A DNA stretch of 64,000 nucleotides from Alphaproteobacteria bacterium. Its GTDB lineage: Bacteria; Pseudomonadota; Alphaproteobacteria; UBA828. Under the pieces are notes generated by a model that did not search any database, had not been told where the DNA came from, and saw only the letters and a program-made list of their open reading frames with translations. Both the position numbers and the translations under genes were made by a program. Position 1 is the first letter of the stretch. Every line of letters begins with the position of its first letter. Of this stretch, positions 10,637-49,421 are shown piece after piece. Location: assembly GCA_965214705.1 (NCBI GenBank), contig CBDCCI010000002.1, positions 544,001 through 608,000 on the forward strand, given 5' to 3'.

Positions 10637-10702
10637 GGCGGCACGCAGGCGGGGCCGCAGATTTCGGTCGCGGTCCCGCCTGCACTTTTCCCTGGTCATG
10701 CA

Positions 10703-25899: not shown

Positions 25900-25937
25900 T
25901 CTGGAACATCCTGATGTTCCAGGCATGGCTGGAACGT

Positions 25938-29029: not shown

Positions 29030-30695
29030 GTAACTGCCCAGGTCGCTTACTGAGGTGATTCCGGTGTTGGGGAGTTCTTGCCCGGTAGGCTCACGCGCAC
29101 TTGACGGTGGCGATGAGTTGGTCCGATGGGCTGATCAGGGCTTCGATGATGTTCCAGCCCTGCTTTCTGGCGGTGGTGATCACGCTGCGCAGGATGGCGA
29201 AGTTCTCGGCCCCCTTTGCGGATCGGAAGCCGCCGGAGATCTTCTGGCGCAGCTTCATCATCCGCAGGTCGCGCTCGGCCTCGTTGTTGGTAAACGCCAC
29301 TTCGGGGTCGGTCAGGAAGCGGAGAACCGCGCATTTTCGATCGCGCAGGCGCAGGGCGAGGTTGTGGCCGATCCGCCGCTTCTTGCGTCCCCGCTTTCCG
29401 GGCTTGGGAGGCGAGAGCGGCGGCTGGCTCTCGTGGAAGGCCAGCGCCTCGGCAATGATCTCGTCGTATCGGCGCTCGATCAGCGCCACAAGCGTCGCCG
29501 GAACGGCGATATCCTTGTCCTGCGCGATCCGGGCGGCGCGATTGGCCCGGCGCAGGAGCTGCTGCATGCGTCCGGCCCAGCCTTCCCCTTCGATGTCCAC
29601 CAGCGCCTGCAACTCCCGCAGGTGGTGGGCGTTGCACAAGCCGTGCTCCACCCCCTCCAACGTGAAGTACGGCTTCCAGTGATCGTGAACGACGATACCG
29701 GAAACACCCAAGAGCAGGTCGCCGCGCTTGGCGCTGACCCGGAATGCCGCCAGATGCGGCGTGCAGATCACATGGAGCCACTGCGTTTGCCCGCCAATCC
29801 GGAACCCGGTCTCGTCGAGGTGCTTCACCCGCGCCGTGCCCGCCGCAAGCTCCTGTATGTGGGTGGCAACTCCCCGCAGCCGATCGGCCGCCCTCTCGCT
29901 CATCGCCGCCAGTGTCGCAGCCGTCACCGGCGCGCCGAACAGCTCCGCCATCACCTGCGACAGCCGGTCCTCCGGCAGGAAGTGGGCGTGCTGAAGGTAG
30001 ACCGCCACGCCTGCAATGCGCGACCCGTACTGCACCGGTGCCGACACCCCCTCGGGGAACGCTGCACGGGTCAGCGTGCCGCAATGCCCGCAGCACTTGG
30101 CATGCGCCCGGTGCTCGGTCACCTCCAGCGCACGCGCCTCGGGCAGGTCGAAGACCTGGCGGGCGTGCGACACCCCTGCCGTGGCCGCCGCCGACAGGGA
30201 CGAACCGCATCCCTCGCAGGCAGCCGGAACGTGGTTCTCCACCCGGTCCGGGTGATCCGTGCGGCGCAACGTCTCGCCCTTGTGGCCGGGCTGACCGCCC
30301 GGCTTGCGCCCCGATTTGCCCCGCTGGCTTTGGGTCCGCCGCTTGGCCCTCGGCTTCTTCAACCCATCGCTCGACGGCGGCTTGGCGCTGTTGCGACTGC
30401 TCAGTCCGAGACGGCGTTCCAACTCCTCGATACGCTCGACAAGACGCGTGTTTTGTTCCTCCAGCCGCGCATTCTGCTGCCGAAGCCAGGCGTTCTCCTC
30501 CTCCAGGCGAGCGATCTTCTGCTCGGAACTTTCGGGCCGTGCCCCCGTTGAAGGGCCGCGCGGCGACTCGGGATTGCTCATGTCGTTGTTGAGTCATTTT
30601 CCGAAACTTCCGTCAACCCCCTCGTGTCAACTCCAAACTGGCCGTGCCTCAACCCCAAGGTTCAAAATGACAAATCAGACAACCTGGGCAGTTAC
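29030..30695 (-). mobile_element. IS66-family element, single-ORF (ISBst12-like) type
   Basis: TIR GTAACTGCCCAGGT; 8-bp duplication GTCCTTTT. Confidence 0.93.
29091..30581 (-). CDS. IS66-family transposase
   Basis: SRNSAKPPSSD, GGQPGHKG, LDETG, CNAHHLREL, TNNEAERDLR. Confidence 0.93.
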   Translation of the reverse strand: MSNPESPRGPSTGARPESSEQKIARLEEENAWLRQQNARLEEQNTRLVERIEELERRLGLSSRNSAKPPSSDGLKKPRAKRRTQSQRGKSGRKPGGQPGHKGETLRRTDHPDRVENHVPAACEGCGSSLSAAATAGVSHARQVFDLPEARALEVTEHRAHAKCCGHCGTLTRAAFPEGVSAPVQYGSRIAGVAVYLQHAHFLPEDRLSQVMAELFGAPVTAATLAAMSERAADRLRGVATHIQELAAGTARVKHLDETGFRIGGQTQWLHVICTPHLAAFRVSAKRGDLLLGVSGIVVHDHWKPYFTLEGVEHGLCNAHHLRELQALVDIEGEGWAGRMQQLLRRANRAARIAQDKDIAVPATLVALIERRYDEIIAEALAFHESQPPLSPPKPGKRGRKKRRIGHNLALRLRDRKCAVLRFLTDPEVAFTNNEAERDLRMMKLRQKISGGFRSAKGAENFAILRSVITTARKQGWNIIEALISPSDQLIATVKCA

Positions 30696-31450
30696 GTCCT
30701 TTTGGGCCGCCTCGCGCCCGACGCTCAGAATCACCGGCGGCTTGCCGTCCGCGAACCACGGATGCGTGACTTCTTCCTGCGCCAACCGGCGTATGCTGTC
30801 GGCGGGTACGCCGGTGTAGATGGTGCGAACGCGCGCGGTGTCCACCCCCAACGATCGCCGTACGGAGTCGCCCACGCCTCTGGACACCGCCACCACCGCG
30901 TCGGCCAGCGGATAGAGCGTCCGAGCAGCGGCCAGCCACTCCGGCGTATAGTCGGCGACGACGTTGGTGCGCACCGTGACCACCACCGGAACGGCCCGGT
31001 CCGTCAGCTCCGCGGCGCAGACCGCGGCGGTGTCGGCGCCCGGCAGCGCCGACACCAGCACATCAGGGCGCGCCTCACGAACGTACGTCGCGATCATGTA
31101 TGCATACGCATAGACGCGGTGACGACTTCGAACGGGTAGGTTGAAGTCTTTCCCGGCGAGAGCCAGCCAAGTGCGGGCGACACCGATGGGGTTGACGGTC
31201 GTCGCTTCCACCTCGACTCCCGCCTGCTGCACCTCCCGCAGCAGCTTCCTGTCGGTGCCGGGAAGCCGCGCCCGATAAACGCGCATTCCGCTGGGGACCG
31301 CGGCCCGGTAGTCTCCCGCGAATTTGGGGATCACCAGATCCGCCCGATGTCCGCGCTCGATGAGCGACCGCGCCAAGCGGAGAATATTGCGCTCCGCCCC
31401 GCCGGCGTTCAGGCTGGTGAGCATGAAGCCGACATGGAGTTTACCCGATC

Positions 31451-32701
31451 TCACCGCGCGCGTTCCCTCACCAACTCCTCGAACAGCGCGACGTAGGCCT
31501 CGGCGGCCTTTTCGGGGGAGAAGTCGGCGGCGCGGCGCGTAAGCGCTTCCTCCGTCGGGTGAGCGCCGCGCAGCGTCTCGACCAGTGCCCGCGCCAGCGC
31601 CGGCGCGTCGCCCACCGGCGGCAACTCGCCCCAATCCCCAAGGATCTCGCGCGGACCGTAGGGCGTGTCGGTGCTGACCACCGGCGTGCCGCAGGCCAGT
31701 GCCTCGATGACCACGGTCGGCAGACCCTCCCAGCGCGAGGACAGCGCGAGCAGCCTCGCCCGCCGCATGTAGCGGAACGGGTTCTCGTCGAAGTCCACGA
31801 AGCCGAGGTCTTCCTCCGCGCCATGGCCCCTCGCCAGGGACTTGAGCCTTTGCCGGTAGGGGGCCGAGAGCTTGCCGAGGATAACCAGCCGCGCGTTCAC
31901 TTCGCGCCGCGCCAGCCCGAACGCCTCCACTAGCGTGGGGTGGTCCTTCTGCCGCGCCTCACGGCCGACGCTCAGGATAACCGGCGGCTCGCCGTCCGCG
32001 AACCAGGGGTGCGAGACCTCTTCCTGCGCCAGGCGCCATATGCTGTCGGCAGGGACGGGGTTGTAGATGGTGCGAACGCGCTCGGCGTCCACCCCCAACG
32101 ATCGCCGCACGGCCTCGCCCACGCCCCTGGACACCGCCACCACCGCGTCGGCCAGCGGATAGAGCGTCCGGGCAGCGGCCAGCCACTCCGGCGCATAGCT
32201 GGCGGCGACGTTGTTGTGCACCGTGACCACCACCGGAACGGCCCGGTCCGTCAGCTCCGCGGCGCAGACCGCGGCGGCGTCGGCGCTCGCCAGCGCCGAC
32301 ACCAGTACATCGGGACGCGCCTCGCAGAGGTAACGGCTCAGAATGTGGACGGAAGCATAGAGAGAGCGCTTGCGCCGAACCCGTACACCAGGGTGCTTCC
32401 GGCCGAGAACCAGCCAGAGCCATGCGACCCTGACCGGGTTCACGCCAAGCGTCGTTACCTCTACGCCCGACCGTTGAATTTCGCGCAAGAAGGTCCTGTC
32501 GGTGTGAGGAAGCCGCCCCCGATACAGCCGCACTCCACGCGGAATTGCGGCCTTGTAGTCTCCCGCGAAGCAGGGGATCACCAGGTCAACCCGGTGTCCG
32601 CGCTCGATGAGCGATTGCGCCAAGCTCAGAATGATGCGCTGCGCACCGCCGCCGCCCAGGTTGGGCAGCACGAACCCGACATGGAGTCTGCCGTCGGCCA
32701 A
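31451..32701 (-). CDS. GT4 glycosyltransferase, paralog 3
   Basis: GGGGAQR; C-terminal domain essentially identical to paralog 1. Confidence 0.92.
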   Translation of the reverse strand: MADGRLHVGFVLPNLGGGGAQRIILSLAQSLIERGHRVDLVIPCFAGDYKAAIPRGVRLYRGRLPHTDRTFLREIQRSGVEVTTLGVNPVRVAWLWLVLGRKHPGVRVRRKRSLYASVHILSRYLCEARPDVLVSALASADAAAVCAAELTDRAVPVVVTVHNNVAASYAPEWLAAARTLYPLADAVVAVSRGVGEAVRRSLGVDAERVRTIYNPVPADSIWRLAQEEVSHPWFADGEPPVILSVGREARQKDHPTLVEAFGLARREVNARLVILGKLSAPYRQRLKSLARGHGAEEDLGFVDFDENPFRYMRRARLLALSSRWEGLPTVVIEALACGTPVVSTDTPYGPREILGDWGELPPVGDAPALARALVETLRGAHPTEEALTRRAADFSPEKAAEAYVALFEELVRERAR

Positions 32702-32704
32702 CGG

Positions 32705-35700
32705 TCACGCCTTCGCAGGGCGTCGGGCACCGGCGCCGCGCACCGCCCCTATCGCGACGCTCAACCCGGCGAGAAACATGAACGCTTCCTCGCCGAGCAG
32801 ATGCGCGAAGGTCATGCAGTACAGAACGATGACGATGACCCAGGCCACGGTGGCATCCCGGGCAAGCGATTTCGGCGCTACCCATTGTGTGCGCAGAAGC
32901 AAGACGATGGCGGACAGAAACAGAAGCAGAGGGACGATACCGGCCTCTCCCAGCAACATAATGAACAGATTGTGAGGGTCGGGCAGCGCGCCGCTCCATG
33001 TGACGGGGGCGCCCTTCAGGTATTTCAGCGCCCTCAGACCGTGACCGAAGACGGGCGCCTCCATGGCCTTCTCGAATCCCAGCCTCCAAAGCAGCGGTCT
33101 GTCCTTCGCCAGGGCGGCGCAGATGAAGCCGTCATCGATATCGTGGCTGCGCAGACCGTACAGCTCCCACGGCATGCAGTCCTGGAAATCGTTATCGGCG
33201 ACAGCCAGCGAGAGACGCTTGATACCGGCCAATTCGGGCGGGACGGAACCGGTGAGACGGTTGTCGGCCAGCCACAGTTGCCCGAGATTCGACAGATTGG
33301 CGATCTCCCGCGGGATGGGACCCATCAGGCGGTTGTCGCCAAGCGACAGCATGGTCAGACGGGTCAGGTTCCCCAGTTCCGGTGGAATGGGGCCGGTGAG
33401 TCGGTTGCCGTCGAGCCGCAGCAGATGGAGATGGGCCAGCTCGCCCAGCTCCGGGGGGATCCGCCCGGTCAGGTTCATGTCCCGCAAGTCCAGTGCGATG
33501 ATGCGATGCCCTCGACCGATGGTGACGCCCTGCCAGGACGCGACGGGGTGAGCGTAGCTCCAGTTCAGCGCCGCGTCGCCGGCCAAGGTGTCGCGCATGC
33601 GCATCAGACGCGCGCCGTCTTCGAAAAGGCCCGGTTTGGTCCAGGGCGAAGGATCGCAGAGCAGATCGGCGGAATCCAGATCGTTGTGCCGTACCTGCGC
33701 TGCTCGCGCCGTAGCCGGAAGGCAGTCGGCAAACGCGTTGCCGCCCAGACGGAGGACCGCAAGATGAGCCCACCGGTCGAGAGCCTCGCGGAGTGCTCCG
33801 TGCAAACGATTGTTCTCGAGCCGCAGCTCCTCCAGACGCGACAGGTTGCCAAGCTGCGGATGGACGTCGCCCGTCAAGATGTTGTTCTCCAGCGCGAGCA
33901 CCCGCAGACCGGTCAGTGTGGTCAGTCCCTGCGGGATGCCGCCAGTGAGTTCGTTGCCGCCAAGACGCAACGAAACGAGTGCCTGCAACGCGCTCAGTTC
34001 CGGCGGGATCTCGCCGGTCAGCGCGTTGTTTTCCAGTACCAGCGTCCGCAGCCCGGTCAGGGTGCCCAGTTCCGGAGGGATCGGTCCCGCAAGCCGGTTG
34101 TTGCCAAGACGCAGAACGGCAAGGGCGTCCAGAGCCGACAGCTCTGCGGGAATCCGCCCGTTCAGTCCCATGTGCGACAGAGCCAGGGCGACGACCCGCG
34201 GCCCTTCCGCGGCCTCGCCGGCGATGTTGGGCATCCCGACGGTGACACCCCGCCAATAGCCGATGGGGACCGCGTCGCTCCAGTTTAGTTGGACGTCGCC
34301 GGCCAGCACGTCCCGAGCGGCTAACAACGTGGCGCAGTCGTCATACAGGCGCGGCAGTGCTTCGAGGAGGGAGTGGCAGAGCAGGTTCCGGCCGAGAACC
34401 CGACCGCGACCCTGCGCCCGGAGTTCGCCAGCCGCATCGTCATCGTCCAGGCGCAACGCTGGCAGCGCGGCCACAGAGGGCGGTGCGGGGCCGCTCAGAC
34501 GGTTCCCGCTCAGCCACAGGTCGGTGAGCCTCGACAGCTTGCCCAGTTCCGGCGGCACGGAACCGGCCAGGAGGTTGCCGCTCAATGCCAGCATGCGCAG
34601 ACCGGCGAGGTTGCCGAGCTCGGGCGGGATGTCGCCGGCAAGCCGATTGCGGCCCAGGCGCAGGGAGGCGAGTCCGGCAAGCTGCCCCAACTCCGCGGGG
34701 ATGCGTCCGTTCAAACCCATTTGCGTCAGATCCAGCGCCGTCACGCGGCCGCGCGAGCGATCCACCGCGACACCCTGCCAGTCGTCGACCGGCACATCGC
34801 GGCGCCAGTTGAGCGGCGCATCCCCGGCGAGGCTGTCTCTCACCGTCAGCAAGAGGGTGCAATCGGCGAGCAGGCCCGGATCGATTTTCTTCGGCCGGCA
34901 GAAAACCGGCCCGTCGAGGTCATGGTCGGCAATCTCGTGGAGCGCCGGCGGGAAGGGGCGGTTCAGGTCGTTGCCGGCGAGGCGCAGGAAGAAGAGATTG
35001 CCCAGTCCTTCCAGTTCCGGCGGTACGGGGCCGGCGAGCCGGTTATGGCTCAGGTCCAGAGCGACGAGGCCGCCCAATTCGCCGAGTTCCGCGAACAGGC
35101 GCCCGTTCAGTCCCGCGCGCGGCAATGCCAGTGCGGTCACGCGCTTCGGCGAGCCGCCGACGGTGACGCCCTGCCAGAACTCGATGGGGATGTCCTCGCT
35201 CCAGTCAAGCGCCGCGCCGCCGGCCAGGATGTCCTTGTTCGCCAGCAGAAGGCCGCAGTCGGCTTGCAGATCGGAAGTGACGCTGGAGGAAGGTCGACAG
35301 AACAGGCGCCTTACCGCATCCGGACGATCTCGGTTCATGCGGCGGTCCGCCGCCTGCGCCGCCTCTGCATCGTCGAGCGACCGACGATGGCGCAGATCGT
35401 GGAGGTCCAGGTCGTGGCTCGCGATCCGGTAGAGACGCCGCGGATAGGGGCGTTCCAGATCGTTGCCGGAGAGACGTATCAAGGTCAGCTTCTCCAGCCC
35501 TTCGAGTTCCGGCGGCACGGGGCCGGTCAGGCGGTTGTGCTTCAGCCACAACTCCCTGAGATGCGACAGTTTCCCCAGTTCCGGCGGAATCGGGCCGCTC
35601 AAGGCGTTGAAGGAGAGCACCAGCCGCTCCAGGTCGGACAGCTCTCCCAGTTCGGGAGGCACCGGGCCGGTCAGCCGGTTGCGATTGAGATGCAGCGAAA

Positions 35701-35908
35701 CAAGCCGGTCCAGTCCGCCCAACGCTGGCGGGATGCGCCCGTTCAGACCTGACTTGGACAGGTCGAGCCTCGTCACCCGCTCCGGCGAGCCGCCGACGGT
35801 GACGCCCTGCCAGAACTCGATGGGGATGTCCTCGCTCCAGCCGAGCGGCGCATCGCCGGCGAGGATGTCCCTCGCCGCCAACAGGAGCGCGCAATCGGCG
35901 CGCAAACC
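32705..35908 (-). CDS. C-terminal fragment: five LRR modules plus the ligase C-terminus
   Basis: 1066-aa ORF; in frame with the middle fragment once the IS66 is removed (PGLRADC). Confidence 0.85.
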   Translation of the reverse strand, partial: GLRADCALLLAARDILAGDAPLGWSEDIPIEFWQGVTVGGSPERVTRLDLSKSGLNGRIPPALGGLDRLVSLHLNRNRLTGPVPPELGELSDLERLVLSFNALSGPIPPELGKLSHLRELWLKHNRLTGPVPPELEGLEKLTLIRLSGNDLERPYPRRLYRIASHDLDLHDLRHRRSLDDAEAAQAADRRMNRDRPDAVRRLFCRPSSSVTSDLQADCGLLLANKDILAGGAALDWSEDIPIEFWQGVTVGGSPKRVTALALPRAGLNGRLFAELGELGGLVALDLSHNRLAGPVPPELEGLGNLFFLRLAGNDLNRPFPPALHEIADHDLDGPVFCRPKKIDPGLLADCTLLLTVRDSLAGDAPLNWRRDVPVDDWQGVAVDRSRGRVTALDLTQMGLNGRIPAELGQLAGLASLRLGRNRLAGDIPPELGNLAGLRMLALSGNLLAGSVPPELGKLSRLTDLWLSGNRLSGPAPPSVAALPALRLDDDDAAGELRAQGRGRVLGRNLLCHSLLEALPRLYDDCATLLAARDVLAGDVQLNWSDAVPIGYWRGVTVGMPNIAGEAAEGPRVVALALSHMGLNGRIPAELSALDALAVLRLGNNRLAGPIPPELGTLTGLRTLVLENNALTGEIPPELSALQALVSLRLGGNELTGGIPQGLTTLTGLRVLALENNILTGDVHPQLGNLSRLEELRLENNRLHGALREALDRWAHLAVLRLGGNAFADCLPATARAAQVRHNDLDSADLLCDPSPWTKPGLFEDGARLMRMRDTLAGDAALNWSYAHPVASWQGVTIGRGHRIIALDLRDMNLTGRIPPELGELAHLHLLRLDGNRLTGPIPPELGNLTRLTMLSLGDNRLMGPIPREIANLSNLGQLWLADNRLTGSVPPELAGIKRLSLAVADNDFQDCMPWELYGLRSHDIDDGFICAALAKDRPLLWRLGFEKAMEAPVFGHGLRALKYLKGAPVTWSGALPDPHNLFIMLLGEAGIVPLLLFLSAIVLLLRTQWVAPKSLARDATVAWVIVIVLYCMTFAHLLGEEAFMFLAGLSVAIGAVRGAGARRPAKA

Positions 35909-35988
35909 GTAAGCGGTACGCAGACCCCATACCGGAATCTGGCTTGACTACGACGGGGATTTCTTGAGGAGCGCCGTGAGCGCGCGAG

Positions 35989-37731
35989 TCATTTTGCCTC
36001 GGGCTGGAAGTTCCACGGCAGAAGCTCCTGGATGCCCGACTGCGGGTGGCCCTTGGCGATCTTCTCGAGCGTGCTCCGCATCCAGGCGTAGGGCTCGACG
36101 CCGTTCATCTTGCAGGTCTCGATCAGCGAGGCGATGCGGGCCCAGGCTTGCGCACCCTCGTCGTTGCCGGCGAAGAGCGCGTTCTTGGCGGTGAGCTTCA
36201 GCGGCCGGATTCGGTTTTCCACCAGGTTCGAGTCGATCTCGACACGACCGTCGTGCAGGAACTCCAGCAGCCCGTCCCACTGGTTGGCGATATAGGTCAG
36301 CTTCTCGCCGAGACGCGAGCGCGGTGAGACGCGCGAGCGCTGCTCGTCGAGCCAGACACCGAAGGTGTTCACGATCGGCGCCGACTCCTCCCAACGGATC
36401 GCGCGGCGCTCCGCCGGCGGCTTGCCCCGGATCTTCTTCTCGATCGCATAGAGCTTCGCGATCCGATTCAGACCGGCCAGCGCGATCGGCGATGCGCTCG
36501 AGTCGTATACCTCTTTCAGCTTCCGTCTTACATGCGCCCAACAGAGGGCCCGCGTCACAGGGCCTTCCGCCCGGTCCGGCCGCGCCAGGATGTTGTGGCC
36601 CGAGTAGCCGTCGAGCTGCACCGTCCCCGAAAAGCCCTCCATAAGCTCGGCGCCATACTTGCCGCCGCGGCCGGGCGCATAGCGATAGACGACGCCCGGC
36701 GGGTCCGTGCCGCTCCAGTGGCGCTCGTCACGCACAAGGGTCCACATGTAGCCCGTCTTCGTCTTGCCCCGGCCCGGGTCGAGAACGCGGATCGTGGTCT
36801 CGTCCAGACCCAGGTGATCCGACTTCTTCAGCTCATCCTCCAGGCAAGCGACCACGGGGCGCAGGTGAAACGACGCCTGGCCCACCCACGTCGCCAGCGT
36901 CGCACGGTGAACCTCGATCCCCGAGCGCTCGTAGATCTGCGACTGGCGATAGAGCGGGCAATGATCGCCGTACTTCGCGATCAGCACCTGCGCCAGAAGA
37001 GCCTCGGTGGGAAGGCCGCCCTCGACCAGAGCGGCCGGCGCCGGCGACTGCACCACCCCGCCCCCCTTGCACTTGTTGCAGGCGTAGCGGGGGCGCACGG
37101 TCTCGATGACGGTGAACTTCGCCGGCTCATAGTCCAGCCGCTCGCTGCGGTCCTCGCCGATCTTCGTCATCTCGCCGCAGCCGCAGGGGCACATGATCGT
37201 GTCCGGCTCGATCACCTCCTCGCGCCGGTCGACCTGGGGCCCGAAGCGCACCCCGCTGCGCGACCCCCGGGAAGAGCGCCGCCGGCGCTTGCCGCCAGCC
37301 CCCTCGTCCTGCTCCTGGTCATCTGCCTCGGGCCGACCGCCGGCTTCAGCGATCGCCGCCCAAAACTCCTCGAACGTAAGCTGGCGCTCGTCCTCGCCGA
37401 GCTTCTCGGAGCGCGGACCGAACAGCGCCTTCCTGAGCTCCTTGTTGAGATGCTCAAGCCGGCTGATCTGCTCCGCGCTCTGCGCGTTCTCGGCCTCCAG
37501 CCGTGCCGCCCGCGCTTCCGCCGTCTGCCTCGCCGCCTCCGCCGCGCCGCGTGCCTGCTCCGCTTCGCATAGGGCTGCTTCCGTCGCCCGGCGCGCCGCG
37601 CGCTCGTCGTCAAGCTCCGCATGCAGGGCCGCCAGCGCCGCCGAAACCACCGCAGGCGACGGCGAACCGGCGCTGCTGAGGGGTGAGGGCGTGACCTTCG
37701 GCATGGGCCACCCCTTAATCCGATTCGCCAA
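35989..37731 (-). CDS. tnpC: IS66 TnpC
   Basis: Protein identical to copy 1. Confidence 0.95.
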   Translation of the reverse strand: MANRIKGWPMPKVTPSPLSSAGSPSPAVVSAALAALHAELDDERAARRATEAALCEAEQARGAAEAARQTAEARAARLEAENAQSAEQISRLEHLNKELRKALFGPRSEKLGEDERQLTFEEFWAAIAEAGGRPEADDQEQDEGAGGKRRRRSSRGSRSGVRFGPQVDRREEVIEPDTIMCPCGCGEMTKIGEDRSERLDYEPAKFTVIETVRPRYACNKCKGGGVVQSPAPAALVEGGLPTEALLAQVLIAKYGDHCPLYRQSQIYERSGIEVHRATLATWVGQASFHLRPVVACLEDELKKSDHLGLDETTIRVLDPGRGKTKTGYMWTLVRDERHWSGTDPPGVVYRYAPGRGGKYGAELMEGFSGTVQLDGYSGHNILARPDRAEGPVTRALCWAHVRRKLKEVYDSSASPIALAGLNRIAKLYAIEKKIRGKPPAERRAIRWEESAPIVNTFGVWLDEQRSRVSPRSRLGEKLTYIANQWDGLLEFLHDGRVEIDSNLVENRIRPLKLTAKNALFAGNDEGAQAWARIASLIETCKMNGVEPYAWMRSTLEKIAKGHPQSGIQELLPWNFQPEAK

Positions 37732-37797
37732 TGCATGACCAGGGAAAAGTGCAGGCGGGACCGCGACCGAAATCTGCGGCCCCGCCTGCGTGCCGCC

Positions 37798-38148
37798 TCA
37801 CTCCGCCGCCAGCGGGCGGCGAACCGGGCGGGCCTTCACCCGGCGCCAGTCCAGACCCTCGAAGAGGGCCTCGAACTGGCCCTTCGTAAGGCGCATCACA
37901 CCATCCTCGATCCGAGGCCAGGCGAAGCGGCCCTGCTCCAGACGCTTGTAGGTCATCACCAGACCGCTGCCGTCCCACGCAAGGAGCTTGAGCCTGTCGC
38001 CGCGGCGCGAGCGGAAGATCACGATCACCCCGGAATAGATATCGAGGTCCAGCTCCCCCGCCGCCGTCGCCGCAAGCGCGTCGTGGCCGCGACGAAAATC
38101 AACCGGCCGCGTCGCCAACACGATGCGAAGCGAGGGGGCCGCGATCAT
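37798..38148 (-). CDS. tnpB: IS66 TnpB
   Basis: Protein identical to copy 1. Confidence 0.95.
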   Translation of the reverse strand: MIAAPSLRIVLATRPVDFRRGHDALAATAAGELDLDIYSGVIVIFRSRRGDRLKLLAWDGSGLVMTYKRLEQGRFAWPRIEDGVMRLTKGQFEALFEGLDWRRVKARPVRRPLAAE

Positions 38149-38600
38149 GACGACGCCCGGCCCAGGCCCGAGGCCACCGCAACAATCCGATCGACCGCGC
38201 TCTCCACCGGAAGGCGAACGACCACGCCTAGCGCCTCGATCGCCACCGTCCGCTCGGACGTCACGCTATCAACCACCACGGGAACAAATGGCGGTGCAGA
38301 GCCACCAATCCGAGCGCCCGGAAGAGTTCCCTCCCGCGCGCGCCGCCGCCACTTGGTCAGGGTCGTATCGCTGACGCCATGGCGGCGCGCGACCGCCGCA
38401 ACCGAAGAGCCCGGCTCAAAGCTCTCCGAGACAATCCGCGCCTTCTCATCGTCCGGCCAGCGTCGCATGGGGGCCGGCTCAGACGGAGCCGGGGCGGCTC
38501 CCTCAGAAGCTGGGATCTCAACCGAAGCAACAGCGACACCGTCGCCAGATGCCAAAATCGAATCTGTCATCGCGATCTCTCCTGTGTGGCTCGTGGTCAA
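38145..38600 (-). CDS. tnpA: IS66 TnpA
   Basis: Protein identical to copy 1. Confidence 0.9.
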   Translation of the reverse strand: MTTSHTGEIAMTDSILASGDGVAVASVEIPASEGAAPAPSEPAPMRRWPDDEKARIVSESFEPGSSVAAVARRHGVSDTTLTKWRRRAREGTLPGARIGGSAPPFVPVVVDSVTSERTVAIEALGVVVRLPVESAVDRIVAVASGLGRASS

Positions 38601-38660
38601 GGCGGAGAGTCAGCCCCGAAATCAGATCCGCTGGAAGTATGGGGGCCCGATACCGCTTAC

Positions 38661-40262
38661 CGCAAACCGGGATTGTCGGCGGGAGCGGCGGGGCAGGGCG
38701 CGTCCCTGCCGGCGACCGCGCGCAGCTCGGGAGGGAGGAAACCGGTCAGGCGGTTGCCGCTCAGCCAGAGCTTCCTGAGGCTCGACAGCTTCGCCAGTTC
38801 CGCAGGGACGGGGCCGGTCAGGGCATTGTTGGCAAGCCCGAGCCTTTCCAGGTCGGTCAGTTTCCCCAGCTCGGGTGGAATGGCGCCGGTCAGCGCATTG
38901 CTGTCGAGCACCAGGGACCGCAAGCCGGCGAGATGCCCAAATGCCGCGGGTACGCGCCCCCTCAGCCCCGTTCGGGGCAGCTCCAGCGCAATGACACGAC
39001 CTTCCGGACCGCCCACGGTCACACCTTGCCATAAGCCGATAGGGACCGCCGCGTGCCAGTCGAGCGGCGCGCCGCCGGCCAGCGTGTCCTTCGCCGCCAG
39101 CAGCGTCGTGCAGTCCTCGAACAACGCGGGGCTGGTTCGCGGCGGCGGCAGGCAGAGCACGAGGCGGCCGAGATCGTGGTCAGGGACATCGAACAGCGCC
39201 GGCGGAACAGGGCCGGTCAGGCGGTTCTCTCTCAACCACAAGGCCCTGAGCCGGGGGAGTCGTGCCAGTTCCGCAGGGACGGTGCCAGTCAGGGCGTTGC
39301 GATCCAGGCTCAAGTCGCGCAGGTGGACGAGTTGTCCCAACTCCGGCGGAATCGAACCGGTGAGCCGATTGGCGGCCAAGTTCAACGAGACGAGGCCGTC
39401 CAGCCTGCCGAGGCTCGGGGGAATGCGTCCGTTCAGCCCTTTCCCGTACAGATCCAGCGCGATGACACGACCTTCCGGACCGCCCACGGTCACGCCTTGC
39501 CATAAGCCGATGGGGACCGCCGCGTGCCAGTCGAGCGGGGCGCCGCCGGCCAGCGTGTCCTTCGCCGCCAGCAGCCGCGTGCAGTCGCCGAACAACGCGG
39601 GGCTGGTTCGTGGTGGCGGCAGGCAGAGCACGAAGCGGCCGAGATCGTGGTCAGGGACATCGAACAGCGCCGGCGGAACAGGGCCGGTCAGGCGGTTCTC
39701 TCTCAACCACAAGGCCCTGAGCCGGGGGAGTCGTGCCAGTTCCGCAGGGACGGTGCCGGTCAGGGCGTTGCGATCCAGGGCCAAGACGCGCAGGTCGACG
39801 AGTTGTCCCAACTCCGGCGGAATCGAACCGGTGAGCCGATTGGCGGCCAGGTTCAACGAGACGAGGCCGTCCAGCCTGCCGAGTTTCGGGGGAATGCGTC
39901 CGTTCAGCCCTCTCCCGTACAGATCCAGCGCGATGACACGACCTTCCGGACCGCCCACGGTCACGCCTTGCCACAAGCCGATGGGGACCGCCGCGTGCCA
40001 ATCGAGCGGCGCGTCACCGGCCAGCGTGTCCTTCGCCGCCAGCAGCGTCGTGCAGTCCTCGAACAACGCGGGGCTGGTTCGAGGCGGCGGCAGGCAGAGC
40101 ACGAAGCGGCCGAGATCGTGGTCGGCGACGGTATTGATTTCGGGAGGAATGGAGTCGAAGTCGTTGCCCCAGAGACGCAGGACGGACAGCCGGAGCTCTC
40201 CGATAGCGGCCGGGACAGGGCCGGTCAAGCGGTTGCCTTGCAACCACAACGGGCTCGAGGTT
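38661..40262 (-). CDS. Middle fragment: three LRR modules
   Basis: 530-aa ORF with three DCTxLLAAKDTLAG...WQGVTVGGPEGRVIAL caps. Confidence 0.85.
38980..40123. repeat. Near-identical 471-bp tandem repeat (about 2.4 units)
   Basis: CAGGGACATCGAACAGCGCC at 39181 and 39652; 157-aa period in the protein. Confidence 0.85.
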
Positions 40263-40350
40263 CTTGAGCTGTAAGCGGTACGCAGACCCCATACCGGAAT
40301 CTGGCTTGACTACGACGGGGATTTCTTGAGGAGCGCCGTGAGCGCGCGAG

Positions 40351-42093
40351 TCATTTTGCCTCGGGCTGGAAGTTCCACGGCAGAAGCTCCTGGATGCCCG
40401 ACTGCGGGTGGCCCTTGGCGATCTTCTCGAGCGTGCTCCGCATCCAGGCGTAGGGCTCGACGCCGTTCATCTTGCAGGTCTCGATCAGCGAGGCGATGCG
40501 GGCCCAGGCTTGCGCACCCTCGTCGTTGCCGGCGAAGAGCGCGTTCTTGGCGGTGAGCTTCAGCGGCCGGATTCGGTTTTCCACCAGGTTCGAGTCGATC
40601 TCGACACGACCGTCGTGCAGGAACTCCAGCAGCCCGTCCCACTGGTTGGCGATATAGGTCAGCTTCTCGCCGAGACGCGAGCGCGGTGAGACGCGCGAGC
40701 GCTGCTCGTCGAGCCAGACACCGAAGGTGTTCACGATCGGCGCCGACTCCTCCCAACGGATCGCGCGGCGCTCCGCCGGCGGCTTGCCCCGGATCTTCTT
40801 CTCGATCGCATAGAGCTTCGCGATCCGATTCAGACCGGCCAGCGCGATCGGCGATGCGCTCGAGTCGTATACCTCTTTCAGCTTCCGTCTTACATGCGCC
40901 CAACAGAGGGCCCGCGTCACAGGGCCTTCCGCCCGGTCCGGCCGCGCCAGGATGTTGTGGCCCGAGTAGCCGTCGAGCTGCACCGTCCCCGAAAAGCCCT
41001 CCATAAGCTCGGCGCCATACTTGCCGCCGCGGCCGGGCGCATAGCGATAGACGACGCCCGGCGGGTCCGTGCCGCTCCAGTGGCGCTCGTCACGCACAAG
41101 GGTCCACATGTAGCCCGTCTTCGTCTTGCCCCGGCCCGGGTCGAGAACGCGGATCGTGGTCTCGTCCAGACCCAGGTGATCCGACTTCTTCAGCTCATCC
41201 TCCAGGCAAGCGACCACGGGGCGCAGGTGAAACGACGCCTGGCCCACCCACGTCGCCAGCGTCGCACGGTGAACCTCGATCCCCGAGCGCTCGTAGATCT
41301 GCGACTGGCGATAGAGCGGGCAATGATCGCCGTACTTCGCGATCAGCACCTGCGCCAGAAGAGCCTCGGTGGGAAGGCCGCCCTCGACCAGAGCGGCCGG
41401 CGCCGGCGACTGCACCACCCCGCCCCCCTTGCACTTGTTGCAGGCGTAGCGGGGGCGCACGGTCTCGATGACGGTGAACTTCGCCGGCTCATAGTCCAGC
41501 CGCTCGCTGCGGTCCTCGCCGATCTTCGTCATCTCGCCGCAGCCGCAGGGGCACATGATCGTGTCCGGCTCGATCACCTCCTCGCGCCGGTCGACCTGGG
41601 GCCCGAAGCGCACCCCGCTGCGCGACCCCCGGGAAGAGCGCCGCCGGCGCTTGCCGCCAGCCCCCTCGTCCTGCTCCTGGTCATCTGCCTCGGGCCGACC
41701 GCCGGCTTCAGCGATCGCCGCCCAAAACTCCTCGAACGTAAGCTGGCGCTCGTCCTCGCCGAGCTTCTCGGAGCGCGGACCGAACAGCGCCTTCCTGAGC
41801 TCCTTGTTGAGATGCTCAAGCCGGCTGATCTGCTCCGCGCTCTGCGCGTTCTCGGCCTCCAGCCGTGCCGCCCGCGCTTCCGCCGTCTGCCTCGCCGCCT
41901 CCGCCGCGCCGCGTGCCTGCTCCGCTTCGCATAGGGCTGCTTCCGTCGCCCGGCGCGCCGCGCGCTCGTCGTCAAGCTCCGCATGCAGGGCCGCCAGCGC
42001 CGCCGAAACCACCGCAGGCGACGGCGAACCGGCGCTGCTGAGGGGTGAGGGCGTGACCTTCGGCATGGGCCACCCCTTAATCCGATTCGCCAA
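40351..42093 (-). CDS. tnpC: IS66 TnpC
   Basis: Protein identical to copy 1. Confidence 0.95.
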   Translation of the reverse strand: MANRIKGWPMPKVTPSPLSSAGSPSPAVVSAALAALHAELDDERAARRATEAALCEAEQARGAAEAARQTAEARAARLEAENAQSAEQISRLEHLNKELRKALFGPRSEKLGEDERQLTFEEFWAAIAEAGGRPEADDQEQDEGAGGKRRRRSSRGSRSGVRFGPQVDRREEVIEPDTIMCPCGCGEMTKIGEDRSERLDYEPAKFTVIETVRPRYACNKCKGGGVVQSPAPAALVEGGLPTEALLAQVLIAKYGDHCPLYRQSQIYERSGIEVHRATLATWVGQASFHLRPVVACLEDELKKSDHLGLDETTIRVLDPGRGKTKTGYMWTLVRDERHWSGTDPPGVVYRYAPGRGGKYGAELMEGFSGTVQLDGYSGHNILARPDRAEGPVTRALCWAHVRRKLKEVYDSSASPIALAGLNRIAKLYAIEKKIRGKPPAERRAIRWEESAPIVNTFGVWLDEQRSRVSPRSRLGEKLTYIANQWDGLLEFLHDGRVEIDSNLVENRIRPLKLTAKNALFAGNDEGAQAWARIASLIETCKMNGVEPYAWMRSTLEKIAKGHPQSGIQELLPWNFQPEAK

Positions 42094-42159
42094 TGCATGA
42101 CCAGGGAAAAGTGCAGGCGGGACCGCGACCGAAATCTGCGGCCCCGCCTGCGTGCCGCC

Positions 42160-42510
42160 TCACTCCGCCGCCAGCGGGCGGCGAACCGGGCGGGCCTTCA
42201 CCCGGCGCCAGTCCAGACCCTCGAAGAGGGCCTCGAACTGGCCCTTCGTAAGGCGCATCACACCATCCTCGATCCGAGGCCAGGCGAAGCGGCCCTGCTC
42301 CAGACGCTTGTAGGTCATCACCAGACCGCTGCCGTCCCACGCAAGGAGCTTGAGCCTGTCGCCGCGGCGCGAGCGGAAGATCACGATCACCCCGGAATAG
42401 ATATCGAGGTCCAGCTCCCCCGCCGCCGTCGCCGCAAGCGCGTCGTGGCCGCGACGAAAATCAACCGGCCGCGTCGCCAACACGATGCGAAGCGAGGGGG
42501 CCGCGATCAT
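42160..42510 (-). CDS. tnpB: IS66 TnpB
   Basis: Protein identical to copy 1. Confidence 0.95.
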   Translation of the reverse strand: MIAAPSLRIVLATRPVDFRRGHDALAATAAGELDLDIYSGVIVIFRSRRGDRLKLLAWDGSGLVMTYKRLEQGRFAWPRIEDGVMRLTKGQFEALFEGLDWRRVKARPVRRPLAAE

Positions 42511-42962
42511 GACGACGCCCGGCCCAGGCCCGAGGCCACCGCAACAATCCGATCGACCGCGCTCTCCACCGGAAGGCGAACGACCACGCCTAGCGCCTCG
42601 ATCGCCACCGTCCGCTCGGACGTCACGCTATCAACCACCACGGGAACAAATGGCGGTGCAGAGCCACCAATCCGAGCGCCCGGAAGAGTTCCCTCCCGCG
42701 CGCGCCGCCGCCACTTGGTCAGGGTCGTATCGCTGACGCCATGGCGGCGCGCGACCGCCGCAACCGAAGAGCCCGGCTCAAAGCTCTCCGAGACAATCCG
42801 CGCCTTCTCATCGTCCGGCCAGCGTCGCATGGGGGCCGGCTCAGACGGAGCCGGGGCGGCTCCCTCAGAAGCTGGGATCTCAACCGAAGCAACAGCGACA
42901 CCGTCGCCAGATGCCAAAATCGAATCTGTCATCGCGATCTCTCCTGTGTGGCTCGTGGTCAA
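42507..42962 (-). CDS. tnpA: IS66 TnpA
   Basis: Protein identical to copy 1. Confidence 0.9.
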   Translation of the reverse strand: MTTSHTGEIAMTDSILASGDGVAVASVEIPASEGAAPAPSEPAPMRRWPDDEKARIVSESFEPGSSVAAVARRHGVSDTTLTKWRRRAREGTLPGARIGGSAPPFVPVVVDSVTSERTVAIEALGVVVRLPVESAVDRIVAVASGLGRASS

Positions 42963-43022
42963 GGCGGAGAGTCAGCCCCGAAATCAGATCCGCTGGAAGT
43001 ATGGGGGCCCGATACCGCTTAC

Positions 43023-44315
43023 CTTGAGCTTCGCCAACTCCGGCGGGATGGCCCCGGTCAAGGCGTTGAGGCCGAGATGCAGATACTCGAGGCTCGCCAG
43101 ATTTCCCAGCTCGGGCGGAATGCGACCGGTGAGCCGATTGCGTCCAAGGGACAGCGAAACGAGGCGGTCCAGGCGGCCAAGATCCGGGGGGATACGGCCG
43201 TTCAATCCAAGTCCCGCCAGATCCAGCCCGGTGACGCGTCCCTCCGGGCCTTCCACCGTCACGCCCTGCCAGCCGTTGACGGGCACGGTGCGGCTCCAGT
43301 TGAGGGCAATGTCTCCGGCCAGGATGTCCCTCGCCGCCAGCAGTACGGCGCAGTTCGCGCCAGGATTGGCGGTCGGCGAAGGGTCGCAGAACAGCTTCCT
43401 CTCAAGCATGTCGCCGGAAACGTTCCGCAACATCGACCACTGGGACAGACCGTCGGAGAATGCCGCAACGCCGACGAAGCCTGCAATCCCGACAAATCCT
43501 GTGGCGGCCAAAGCCAGGACGAAGGCCCTTGGTTTGCCGCGGACATTGATCAACAGGAACAAAACCATCAACGCACCGAGTATGACCAACGCGGTTCTGG
43601 ACGCCGACCCCAGGCTTGCGGCGACGCCGGCGGCCAGGCCCAGCCAACCGAGCGTGCGCGGCCCGCCATTGGTCAGGAACGCCGCGGCGAGTCCCACCGT
43701 CATGCAGGCGACCAAGCCGGCGTTGTTGGGCTCGGTGAAAGCACCGGTCAGGCGGAATGGAATTCTGTAAGGCGCCAGGATGCCGAGATCGCGCAGAATC
43801 GGCGAAGCGAGAATGATGACGCAGCTCGAAATCAGGACGACAAGCACGCCCTGCAACAACCGGTCGGTGCCGACTCGTTCCAGCACCGCGCGGCCACCGA
43901 CTGCGGCAGCCACGAACACACCAAAACCAAGGACCATAAATCGCAGTGTCCCAGCCGTGCCCGGCCGCCAGTCCGCCTCGTCCATCACGGCAAAGCCGAT
44001 CGCCAGATAGGATGCCACCGCACCGAGCAACAACACGCCGGGCATTCCGCCCACTGTGCTCAGGACAGAGAGGCGTGAGCCGGACTTCCGCCAGGCAAAC
44101 AAGCATCGAATTCCAACCAGGCCCACCAGGATGACTATGCATGCCATGGTCGCCCGTGCGATGACGCCTACGACTTGCGGCATCCCCCAAAGATGCAGTT
44201 CCCGCGCGCCGGTCAGAGCGATGACAGCCAACGTCCAGAACGCGACCGCGATCAGCGCGGTCTGGAGCGCCTCGCTTCGGCGCAGCAGCAAGACTGGATG
44301 TCTGAACAGGAACAT
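43023..44315 (-). CDS. N-terminal fragment: multi-TM ligase-like domain plus the first LRR module
   Basis: Several hydrophobic helices, then NCAVLLAARDILAG...WQGVTV and LRRs. Confidence 0.85.
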
Positions 44316-49418: not shown

Positions 49419-49421
49419 GGC

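Follow-up and report, generated by a model that had tools for sequence, protein, structure and literature searches.

The question raised by this locus is what kind of protein was encoded by a set of interrupted reading frames in which motifs of membrane-bound glycan ligases stand on either side of leucine-rich repeats (LRRs) of the plant receptor type, and what such an enzyme would do with them. The window, that is, the whole 64,000-nucleotide stretch analysed here, comes from an alphaproteobacterial genome, and an earlier note made from its sequence had proposed an O-antigen ligase or Wzy-like enzyme with nine LRR modules in its large external loop.

A gene interrupted by two IS66 copies and a frameshift

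Positions 44315–32705 of the minus strand correspond to one gene, split by two IS66 copies and a net +1 frameshift (Table 1). The two copies are 2752 bp each, lie in the same direction, are 100% identical to one another and encode proteins matching HTH_Tnp_1, TnpB_IS66 and DDE_Tnp_IS66; genome-wide, 31 full-length copies were counted at ≥99% identity, copy 2 among them. An 8-bp target duplication flanks each copy; the two duplications differ, and the insertions were therefore independent events. Removal of copy 1 restores the frame, and when each IS and one copy of its duplication were deleted by script, the middle and C-terminal pieces shared one 1610-codon frame, relative to which the N-terminal piece was one base out. 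An uninterrupted paralog of 2031 aa, 93–97% identical to the window pieces, is present on contig C1 of the same genome. At the frameshift site its protein reads ...KNLEELWLQGN, and the CCCG of the window in place of its GAG bears out the earlier note, which had reconstructed an ORF of about 2030 aa by removing two IS66 copies and an extra base near 40250. In run X3, one contig lacks one base at 40253, and in X1 and X2 there are contigs that run from 40250 to 43023 with no IS and 11 intervening letters; a precise excision of the IS from the window would leave 12. Two independent IS66 insertions plus the +1 frameshift have inactivated the window copy, which is a pseudogene and a dead paralog of a membrane glycan transferase.

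Table 1. Features of the locus, listed in window coordinates
Feature	Position	Strand	Description
Two tandem tyrosine integrases	48219..50543	-	Upstream of the cassette; Phage_integrase and Arm-DNA-bind_3 on both
N-terminal piece	43031..44315	-	428 aa; ORF and translation, motifs; 93.5% aa identity to paralog residues 1–428
IS66 copy 2	40271..43022	-	2752 bp, within the module-1 LRRs; duplication CTTGAGCT at 40263–40270 and 43023–43030
Frameshift site	40250..40253	-	CCCG against GAG in the intact paralog (coding strand); net +1 by alignment
Middle piece	38669..40249	-	527 aa, end of module 1 and modules 2–4; 93.2% aa identity to paralog residues 436–962
IS66 copy 1	35909..38660	-	2752 bp, in the linker before cap 5; duplication CGCAAACC at 35901–35908 and 38661–38668
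C-terminal piece	32705..35908	-	1066–1067 aa; 96.8% aa identity to paralog residues 963–2030
GT4 glycosyltransferase 1	31451..32701	-	416 aa, frame intact; Glycos_transf_1 E 8.4e-29, Glyco_transf_4 E 2.2e-22
GT4 glycosyltransferase 2	28530..31454	-	Split by a 1667-bp IS66-family element at 29030–30696 (borders from BLAST) into an N-domain (~30697–31454) and a C-domain (28530–29029); Glyco_transf_4 on 30675–31634, DDE_Tnp_IS66 on 29091–30581, Glycos_transf_1 on 28530–29090
GT4 glycosyltransferase 3	27283..28533	-	Open frame; aa sequence 77% identical to that of the third GT4 at the intact locus
Polytopic membrane protein, presumed Wzx-like flippase	25938..27269	-	aa sequence 92% identical to that of the 440-aa protein at the intact locus

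Membrane core and predicted fold

In the N-terminal piece, nine predicted transmembrane (TM) helices, with RLTGAFTEPNNAG at residue 188 and SRT at residue 239, lead to the first Cys pair, to cap 1 and to the LRRs with which module 1 begins, and the C-terminal piece runs from modules 5–9 through the catalytic loop (R..LW, FGHG, PHN, GEAG; found as LLWRLG, FGHG, PHN and GEAG at residues 939–987) into three further TM helices. The hydrophobic helices are arranged 9 + 3, both termini are basic, and the loop extends from 291 to 1942. Both ends match Pfam Wzy_C, the N-terminal piece over profile positions 3–70 (E 8.1e-4) and the C-terminal piece over 82–149 (29.3 bits, E 8.3e-7); in a genome search the N half fell on positions 2–72 and the C half on 81–149, and the intact paralog reached 36.6 bits against a cut-off of 31.7, in two stretches. 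The same profile was matched by 42 of the 43 insert-free relatives (400–480 aa).

The Arg of R..G.F..PN, the Ser-Arg of SRT, the Arg of R..LW and the His-Asn are invariant or ≥90% conserved in A1 and A3. Passages of PMC10920833 and PMC3643930 name two Arg and one His for WaaL and PglL, the latter giving the Wzy_C Arg, Arg and His as common to both enzymes; these three correspond to the conserved Arg/His of the LRR-carrying family.

The fold was assessed on a natural one-module homolog, P0094, which is only 46% identical over the N-terminal region. Its model (pLDDT 85.7, pTM 0.83) had WaaL 7TPJ as top match (VIA-align Z 22.0, rmsd 5.1, 353 of 403 residues aligned, model range 13–570), followed by FtsW (Z 14.4), and Foldseek returned 7TPG (E 3.6e-4). 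The N- and C-terminal parts of P0094 are confidently predicted to fold as one WaaL-like 12-helix domain, in keeping with the single ligase-type domain envisaged in the earlier note, and a plant-receptor-like LRR module is placed in the TM9–TM10 loop. For a 1157-aa homolog (74% identical) pTM was 0.42, with pLDDT below 50 in the catalytic loop (residues 1019–1082), and all of the best 50 Foldseek matches were plant LRR receptor ectodomains.

This is a Wzy_C-family protein of the WaaL-type 12-helix fold; the conserved active-site Arg and His lie in its long TM9–TM10 loop, which has gained nine tandem modules between the arginines of SRT and R..LW. The Wzy_C/WaaL character previously read from the flanking motifs is in line with both the Pfam and the structural matches. 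The resemblance to WaaL (7TPG, 7TPJ; CAZy GT121) lies in the shared Pfam family Wzy_C, the 12 TM helices, the long periplasmic loop near the C terminus and the Arg, Arg and His, but sequence identity is only about 14%, a profile search of PDB sequences gave no matches, the loop here bears about 1600 aa of LRR modules, and the gene sits in a mobile glycosyltransferase/flippase cassette rather than an LPS-core locus. Fold and motifs do not tell a polymerase from a ligase, and the NCBIfam matches were weak and below threshold both for a repeat-unit polymerase model (TIGR04370, 18.6 bits, cut-off 40) and for a model of a putative O-glycosylation ligase (TIGR03097, 17.8 bits, cut-off 188).

The LRR modules of the loop

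Nine cap motifs are present in the window pieces (one in the N-terminal, three in the middle and five in the C-terminal piece, the ninth without Cys), the number of capped modules that had been proposed to lie between the Wzy_C motifs. Each module is built of a Cys-pair linker, a plant-type N-cap and three to seven plant-type 24-residue LRRs, and each cap is preceded by a Cys pair, the first pair being invariant or nearly so in 57 homologs. A strict pattern found 29 LRR units, which is an undercount; Pfam LRR_1 matched the middle piece at E 2.4e-39 and the C-terminal piece at 1.9e-51, and LRRNT_2 was absent from a scan of the intact paralog at E up to 1.

The single module of P0094 aligns to the N-terminal cap and first LRRs of BRL2, SERK2, FLS2, PGIP and ERL1 (Z 9–12, rmsd 2.0–3.3 Å, 27–33% identity, about 100 residues), so that the repeats are of the plant-specific class in structure (Foldseek and structural alignment) as well as in sequence, as had been suggested. 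Like the ectodomains of plant LRR receptors (SERK/BAK1, ERL1, FLS2, BRL2, PGIP), they have 24-residue LxxLxLxxNxLTGxIPxxLG repeats after a helical N-cap; unlike them, nine short capped modules stand in series within a bacterial membrane enzyme, no kinase is present and the Cys pair of the cap lies before the helix. The LRR regions of Xanthomonas XopAE, XopAC and XopL (NCBIfam) are of the same class and were matched at E 1e-14 to 8e-36, but below threshold (51–124 bits against cut-offs of 450–600) and in the LRR region only, and our protein is an integral membrane enzyme, not an effector. A Wzy_C core combined with a protein-binding repeat scaffold also occurs in Wzy_C_2/TPR architectures, in which, however, the TPRs form a C-terminal extension and do not interrupt the catalytic loop.

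The glycan cassette

As previously noted from the sequence, the gene heads a layout of three glycosyltransferases and a flippase, here three GT4 genes and a protein of about 12 hydrophobic segments (hydropathy), the presumed flippase, which has no Pfam match, SpoVB appearing only at E 0.1; the second glycosyltransferase of the window is split by another IS. The window and the intact locus (L011) share the order GT4, GT4, GT4, 12-TM protein; at the intact locus, the third GT4 matches Glycos_transf_1 and Glyco_transf_4, the same integrase pair lies directly upstream of the paralog (at 13452–15728) and a convergent AsnB-like amidotransferase lies beyond the 12-TM gene. GT4 genes likewise follow the Wzy-LRR gene at L015 and L016. 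The ORFs scanned around the intact locus showed no initiating transferase, exporter or Wzz. Like a gene for a Wzy repeat-unit polymerase (BP-Pol families, CAZy clan GT-C1), the LRR-carrying gene is the sole one of Wzy_C type beside the glycosyltransferases and the flippase-like protein of its cassette. [quoted passage not shown]

Possible functions

On balance, we consider it probable that the window holds an inactivated Wzy_C-core paralog with an LRR-loaded loop, derived from a horizontally spreading glycan cassette. The most likely role of the family is to serve that cassette as polymerase or ligase, with a periplasmic LRR scaffold. The GT4 enzymes would build an undecaprenyl-pyrophosphate-linked oligosaccharide, which the 12-TM protein would flip and the Wzy_C core would transfer at the periplasmic face, and the ~1600-aa LRR array may form a binding scaffold directly over the active site, with an acceptor, a partner or the chain as it grows as its putative targets. 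Acting as a ruler, selecting acceptors and self-glycosylation, as raised in the earlier note, would be hypothetical roles. We tentatively regard the role of repeat-unit polymerase of the cassette as the most likely one for the core; with less confidence, a ligase that attaches the glycan to some acceptor different from lipid A-core, perhaps a protein, is conceivable. A protein O-oligosaccharyltransferase of the PglL/PilO kind whose array docks periplasmic acceptors, or which glycosylates its own linkers, appears unlikely. It would account for a protein-binding scaffold, as LRRs are, beside the acceptor-activating His loop and for inter-module linkers such as CLPPPRTSPALFEDC, which are of low complexity and rich in Pro, Ser and Thr, and it agrees with the Arg, Arg and His that PglL shares with WaaL and with the presence of another Wzy_C gene in the LPS-core context of the genome. 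However, PglL_A (PF15864) was not matched in any Pfam scan, no pilin or other obvious target gene was seen among the neighbours scanned (window, L011, L015, L016), and the cassette resembles the Wzx/Wzy repeat-unit type, which needs a polymerase, no other candidate for which was seen around the intact locus.

That the protein would be the LPS O-antigen ligase of its host, joining O-antigen to lipid A-core, is highly improbable, even though the closest structure is that of WaaL and Pfam calls the family 'O-antigen ligase'. WaaL is the only solved family member among the matches, and the match therefore shows the fold and not the function; elsewhere in the genome, an ordinary 420-aa Wzy_C gene directly follows a GT9 heptosyltransferase and is the likelier LPS ligase. 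A housekeeping ligase would also be at odds with a gene that is multi-copy and mostly broken in the genome, adjacent to integrases, and whose N-terminal piece was unmatched in all 40 relatives searched (20 of the same genus). It is very unlikely, too, that the array lacks a specific ligand and serves as a spacer, or arose by neutral expansion of a tandem repeat in an insertion-tolerant loop. The equivalent loop of relatives is either empty or filled by one LRR module, by four Ig-like repeats (SCAB-Ig match) or by inserts without assignment, and modules 2–4 are recent, near-identical tandem duplicates of 157 aa (471 bp; direct repeats at 79–95% DNA identity). Between orthologs, the LRR positions of the concave face belong to the most variable ones, so that no conserved binding surface is evident, and comparison with the paralog gave a dN/dS of 0.76 for the loop as against 0.37 for the membrane core, a value that includes the pseudogene lineage. 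On the other hand, dozens of genomes keep open frames for forms of about 2000 aa with 9–10 modules, on contigs several Mb long, and conservation is strong in the caps, the Cys pairs and the framework residues of the LRRs. Contact with a eukaryotic host, raised in the earlier note, is the least probable reading: the repeats and caps do resemble plant receptor ectodomains, and the genome has a large IS expansion, which is typical of recent host restriction, but the loop faces the periplasm by topology in a bacterium with LPS-core genes and is not on the cell surface, which makes direct contact unlikely in a diderm.

Homologs and probable horizontal spread of the cassette

A search for intact homologs, as the earlier note had suggested, returned beside the paralog 80 further database proteins (1117–3555 aa) with the same N-terminal membrane region, all 80 matching LRR families and 69 of them Wzy_C. 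No description of an LRR-carrying Wzy_C enzyme was found in the literature searched, which agrees with the remark that no described example was known, but the architecture itself is common in sequence databases. The N-terminal membrane core is 71–77% identical in four MAGs labelled, in their record titles only, as Gammaproteobacteria, Alphaproteobacteria, Bryobacterales and Nitrospirales, while RpoB is 60–77% identical to the same four; these identities, the adjacent integrases and the lack of a match to the N-terminal piece in the 40 relatives searched suggest that the cassette spreads horizontally. One of the homologs, P0031, is fused to GT4 domains.

A broken gene copy and its intact paralog

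Within a region of 61-71% G+C (1-kb windows), three long minus-strand frames, 44315-42984, 40249-38657 and 35905-32705, are parts of a single protein. When each IS and one copy of its target duplication were taken out by script, the middle and C-terminal pieces joined into one frame of 1610 codons, while the N-terminal piece stayed one base off frame even with both IS elements removed, as the earlier note had reported for a base near 40250. At 40250-40253 the window reads CCCG where the intact paralog aligns with GAG, the paralog protein running ...KNLEELWLQGN across the site. Nine cap motifs are distributed over the pieces as 1 + 3 + 5, together with at least 29 leucine-rich repeat (LRR) units, and all the motifs that the earlier note had named are present, its description of IS66 copies, frameshift, motifs and modules being correct in every detail. 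The window copy is a decayed paralog, a pseudogene, in an IS-crowded genome. A search of public runs listed no RNA dataset for the N-terminal stretch.

Several loci were recovered when the 7.9-Mb genome was searched with the N-terminal piece, including an uninterrupted frame of 2031 aa on contig C1 (see table). A Wzy_C family search of the genome gave five C-halves and three N-halves of the Wzy-LRR kind, plus two ordinary Wzy_C genes; the whole Wzy-LRR gene is present at only one locus, and within the genome the cap-plus-LRR part of the query matches nowhere outside loci of this family. IS copies lie near the 1507-aa frame at C1:2493589-2496343 and 2498039-2500790 (BLAST). A C-terminal fragment stands beside an IS66 copy at both C1:1-4100 and C2:702261-707103, and the ends of C1 and C2 seem to fall within these repeats. 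Intact homologs, on whose existence the earlier note had made its proposal depend, were thus found, namely the 2031-aa paralog and 80 long database proteins, and because they exist the reading of the window gene as an artefact or chimera was dropped.

The N-terminal, middle and C-terminal window pieces are 93.5%, 93.2% and 96.8% identical to the intact paralog in protein sequence, with dS of 0.03-0.08. Between window 32705-44315 and the intact frame, one of the two lineages being a pseudogene, dN/dS is 0.37 in the membrane core, 0.76 in the LRR loop and 0.97 in modules 2-4, a pattern for which relaxed constraint, diversifying change and gene conversion between the near-identical modules are possible explanations. 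In contigs from two public sequencing runs (X1 and X2) covering window 39900-43400, position 40250 is joined to 43023 and the IS is absent. The junction has 11 letters, versus 12 in a precise IS-free join of the window, so the frame is restored (NLEEL or NLKEL). One X1 contig has no mismatch to the window flanks over 109 + 311 bases, and a contig from a third run (X3) is short of one base at 40253. IS-free, in-frame alleles are therefore present in public data; such contigs report presence and not frequency, and the broken state may be polymorphic.

Insertion sequences and mobile-element debris

The hallmarks of IS66 elements are three ORFs (an HTH TnpA, TnpB and a DDE TnpC), inverted repeats at the termini and target duplications of 8 bp, and the two 2752-bp elements interrupting the window gene are IS66 copies by these features. 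They are in direct orientation and identical end to end, and each codes for HTH_Tnp_1 (E 3.2e-15), TnpB_IS66 (E 9.4e-34) and DDE_Tnp_IS66 (E 1.1e-96) proteins between the termini GTAAGCGGTA...TACCGCTTAC. The 8-bp target duplication is CGCAAACC around one copy and CTTGAGCT around the other; since the duplications differ, the copies represent two independent insertions and not one composite transposon. IS expansion in this genome is large. The 2752-bp IS66 is present in 31 full-length copies at ≥99% identity (10 on C1, 6 on C2, 15 on C3), and a 2161-bp IS with a DDE_Tnp_1 transposase in 36 (≥99% identity). The window itself apparently carries four copies of the IS66 transposase frame, as judged from ORF composition.

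The AsnB-like amidotransferase gene, intact in L011:188-2245 (the locus of the intact paralog), appears to have been truncated in the window by a mobile element, and window 22001-22598 is 94.8% identical to C1:491161-491758 (BLAST). The recombinase-type frame listed in the table is missing from the corresponding position of the intact locus and seems to be another remnant of mobile elements.

Locations of Wzy-LRR gene copies, integrases and mobile-element features in the window and its genome (C1-C3, contigs of the window's genome; L011, locus of the intact paralog)
Feature	Location	Strand
IS-expansion stretch, 2752-bp IS66 copy	window 35909-38660	
IS-expansion stretch, 2752-bp IS66 copy	window 40271-43022	
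IS-expansion stretch	window 374-2182	
IS-expansion stretch	window 10637-12445	
IS-expansion stretch, 2161-bp IS	window 23740-25900	
Integrases	window 48219-50543	
Transposase_29 domain joined to C-terminal part of asparagine-synthase-like amidotransferase, 1132-aa frame	window 19221-22619	+
Recombinase zinc-ribbon and HTH-domain frame, between Wzy-LRR start and integrases	window 44631-45857	-
Uninterrupted 2031-aa frame	C1:497255-503350 = L011:7255-13350	
1507-aa frame running into another IS66	C1:2489072	
Copy with stop codons	C1:452629	
C-terminal fragments	C3:523585-525456; C2 end; C1 start	

A family of Wzy_C proteins with loop inserts

The intact paralog scores 36.6 bits in two stretches against Pfam Wzy_C (PF04932), above the whole-protein gathering cut-off of 31.7 bits; the window C piece alone reaches 29.3 bits (profile 82-149), and an E value of 8.1e-4 was obtained for the N piece over profile 3-70. 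Because profile positions 2-72 fall in the N half and 81-149 in the C half, the LRR array splits the Wzy_C domain. A word-indexed search restricted to proteins of 1117-3555 aa returned 80 proteins in that length range that are 51-89% identical to the N-terminal region, many of them on contigs of 3-6 Mb; in precomputed annotation all 80 carry LRR families and 69 carry PF04932. In an exhaustive search, the 335-aa N-terminal membrane region matched 119 cluster representatives. These relatives include insert-free proteins of 400-480 aa (e.g. P0109 and P0110), with a continuous Wzy_C domain in 42 of 43, forms with a single LRR module (P0094, P0101, P0107, P0108, P0113 and P0139) and a four-module form (P0099). 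At the same loop point, four Ig-like repeats with a SCAB-Ig match are found in P0114, and nine proteins have inserts with no Pfam match (P0100, P0106, P0117, P0129, P0130, P0134, P0153, P0168 and P0181). The Wzy_C loop is a hot spot for accessory periplasmic domains. The frame L017:9938-11680 was grouped with the relatives bearing other inserts at this point.

The kind of enzyme, Wzy_C with a WaaL fold, is known, yet the LRR architecture is abundant in databases and unnamed. The earlier note had known of no described example, and indeed no description of a Wzy_C, O-antigen ligase or polymerase protein with an LRR insert was found in the literature searched, the supplementary seed lists and family tables of PMC10920833 lying outside that search; such proteins may already have a place in a CAZy family. 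Cluster look-up for 10 homologs gave neither names nor accessions, and the Protein Atlas gave as a lead only O-antigen-ligase-like clusters, at a score of 0.84, under the 0.9 level. A profile of 43 insert-free relatives had zero matches among PDB sequences at E up to 1, WaaL being reached by fold searches only. Sub-threshold matches to TIGR03088, TIGR03108 and TIGR03097 hinted at an exosortase link, which was dropped, no Exosortase_EpsH being found in the genome.

The plant-type LRR array

In each module, a linker bearing two Cys residues spaced 12-14 residues apart is followed by a helical cap (pattern C..LL...D.LAG...W...P...WQGV) and then by three to seven 24-residue repeats. The first of these Cys pairs varies little or not at all across 57 homologs, which would fit an oxidising, periplasmic location. 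The plant-specific LRR class has the 24-residue consensus LxxLxLxxNxLTGxIPxxLG, and the assignment of the repeats to it in the earlier note was borne out: the period is 24 aa (72 bp), framework positions 1, 4, 6, 9, 11, 13, 16 and 19 are 92-98% conserved among orthologs, and the best 50 Foldseek matches of the model of the 1157-aa homolog P0008 are all plant LRR receptors. In this family, capped LRR modules of plant type are part of a bacterial membrane enzyme. Variability is highest at positions 2, 3, 5, 7 and 8, on the concave face, and at 21, 23 and 24; entropy per repeat position revealed no conserved concave binding face, in a comparison where non-orthologous modules may have been aligned with each other.

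In structural alignment, the one LRR module of P0094 matches the cap and opening repeats at the N terminus of BRL2, SERK2, FLS2, PGIP and ERL1 (Z 9-12, rmsd 2.0-3.3 Å, identity 27-33%), its cap aligning from N-terminal residues 26-34 of the plant ectodomains onward. Pfam LRRNT_2 (PF08263), the plant LRR N-cap, gave no match on the intact paralog at E up to 1. In NCBIfam searches, the LRR regions of three Xanthomonas families, XopAE, XopAC and XopL, were matched below threshold; identity with these type III effectors was rejected, the best match reaching 124 bits in the LRR region only, versus cut-offs of 450-600 bits, and the similarity is one of repeat class only.

Fold, topology and catalytic residues

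By hydropathy, the intact paralog has nine helices followed by a loop (291-1942) and a further three helices, with both termini basic, the same layout as that given for WaaL in passages of PMC10920833. For fold modelling, two natural, unaltered homologs were used in place of the 2031-aa protein. The AlphaFold2 model of P0008 (74% identical) is confident in the LRR modules, has pLDDT below 50 in the catalytic loop (1019-1082) and has pTM 0.42; since its fold search was filled by LRR matches, it is uninformative on the membrane core. The model of P0094 (582 aa, one module, 46% identical) has pLDDT 85.7 and pTM 0.83, and its best match among 48,161 chains is WaaL 7TPJ, at Z 22.0 and rmsd 5.1 Å with 353 of 403 residues aligned over residues 13-570 of the model. 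Next come the SEDS polymerases FtsW and RodA (Z 12-14), and Foldseek ranks WaaL 7TPG at the top (E 3.6e-4). As modelled for P0094, and by the hydropathy of the paralog, the protein is predicted to have the WaaL-type fold, i.e. GT-C with 12 TM helices, the last three preceded by a long periplasmic loop. Given the match of P0094 to WaaL, the N- and C-terminal parts form one ligase-type domain around the insert. The earlier note, which had asked for TM topology and AlphaFold analyses and had staked its proposal on the two parts folding together, is supported by these results.

In WaaL and PglL the key residues are two Arg and one His on periplasmic loops (in sections of PMC3643930 and PMC10920833), the catalytic residues of E. 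coli WaaL being R215, R288 and H338 (PMC3643930, likewise in part). The Arg of SRT, the Arg of R..LW and the His of HN all occur in the window pieces, and in two alignments of homologs (A1 and A3) they are either invariant or conserved to at least 90%. From their order and spacing, they are probably the counterparts of the WaaL/PglL Arg, Arg and His.

The cassette and its probable horizontal spread

The intact locus consists of two tandem tyrosine integrases, the Wzy-LRR gene, three GT4 glycosyltransferase genes and a gene for a 440-aa membrane protein that has about 12 hydrophobic segments and matches no family, beyond which lies a convergent AsnB-like amidotransferase gene. Gene order in the window is the same. 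There, the first glycosyltransferase gene is intact, the second is interrupted by a 1667-bp IS66-family element, the third and the membrane protein gene have open frames, and the amidotransferase shares a fused frame with a transposase. The order of three glycosyltransferases and a flippase proposed in the earlier note therefore holds at both loci, the last gene being a putative flippase recognised by its segments and not by family. In two other loci the Wzy-LRR gene is followed by a pair of neighbouring GT4 genes with a third lying 1.2 kb beyond (L015), or by three adjacent GT4 genes (L016).

The N-terminal piece was unmatched in all 40 relatives searched, 20 of them of the same genus. Its core is nevertheless 71-77% identical in four MAGs titled Gammaproteobacteria, Bryobacterales, Alphaproteobacteria and Nitrospirales, labels taken from the record titles only, for which RpoB identity to the window's genome is 77%, 65%, 65% and 60-69%, in the same order. 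The membrane core is thus conserved as much as RpoB, or more. Extreme divergence is a known trait of this enzyme family, and parts of PMC10920833 cite identities down to 16% within one species. Conservation at the level of RpoB in so divergent a family, together with the adjacent integrases, points to horizontal transfer, and the Wzy-LRR cassette appears to spread across phylum boundaries.

Proposed function of the Wzy-LRR protein

Wzy, WaaL and PglL enzymes decide the bacterial surface glycan, and their choice of chain length or acceptor is still poorly understood. From the fold and motifs demonstrated here we infer the reaction: the Wzy-LRR protein would serve a mobile Wzx/Wzy-type cassette as its Und-PP-glycan transferase. 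It could well be the polymerase, a reading we hold tentatively at a little under an even chance, on the grounds that nothing else in the cassette is a candidate polymerase and that a ligase candidate lies elsewhere in the genome. The gene's setting is compatible with a Wzy polymerase of Und-PP repeat units, for which one would expect the only Wzy-type gene of a Wzx/GT cassette. TIGR04370 matches an insert-free relative weakly (18.6 bits versus a cut-off of 40). That ligase candidate is an ordinary 420-aa Wzy_C gene (C3:1158711-1159973; L021:6711-7973) directly after a GT9 heptosyltransferase gene, and it is likely the housekeeping LPS ligase, a likelier one than Wzy-LRR. Its presence argues against the Wzy-LRR protein acting as WaaL in joining Und-PP-O-antigen to lipid A-core, as do the multiple copies of the Wzy-LRR gene, its position beside integrases and the lack of matches in the 40 relatives. 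The second ordinary Wzy_C gene (744 aa) lies on C2 amid transposases and a group II intron reverse transcriptase.

It could also be that the protein is a ligase to another acceptor, possibly a protein, which we regard as possible and somewhat doubtful. An LRR scaffold next to the acceptor-activating His would be in keeping with such a role; however, PglL_A (PF15864) gave no Pfam match in the window pieces, in the intact paralog or in 21 relatives, and no pilin-like family or target gene was found among the neighbours scanned. Such adjacency is not obligatory, a pilin or other target gene being next to PglL in 21 of 31 cases according to portions of PMC3643930.

Whether polymerase or ligase, the LRR array would leave the membrane after TM9 and re-enter the catalytic helices before TM10, so that both of its ends would be anchored over the active site. 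By this topology the array must face the periplasm, and direct contact with a eukaryotic host, as suggested in the earlier note, is therefore unlikely. We may speculate, at low probability, that the array is a built-in co-polymerase or ruler in the periplasm, or else an acceptor gate, of a self-contained, phylum-crossing cassette, replacing a Wzz-type partner, the number and sequence of modules setting glycan chain length or target. Wzz/PCP (PF02706) was found neither in this genome (98.5% complete) nor in three of four other carriers (G041-G044), by a search that was positive in 8 of 14 known genomes used as control; this is compatible with a ruler, a weak hint from few genomes. The other repeat domains in the same loop of relatives are also compatible with a ruler or gate. 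Natural module numbers among relatives are 0, 1, 4-5 and 9-10, and the series of inserts (none, one LRR module, nine or ten, Ig-like), at a point near the catalytic Arg and His, provides a direct handle on the role of the periplasmic loop.

Further variants of the gene were observed. In a MAG labelled Gammaproteobacteria, L014:10001-21003 contains three tandem Wzy-LRR genes of 831 aa, 1176 aa and at least 1579 aa (2059-aa open frame), and P0031 and P0082 (2230 and 2236 aa) are natural fusions of Wzy-LRR with the GT4 domains PF13579, PF13439, PF00534 and PF13692.
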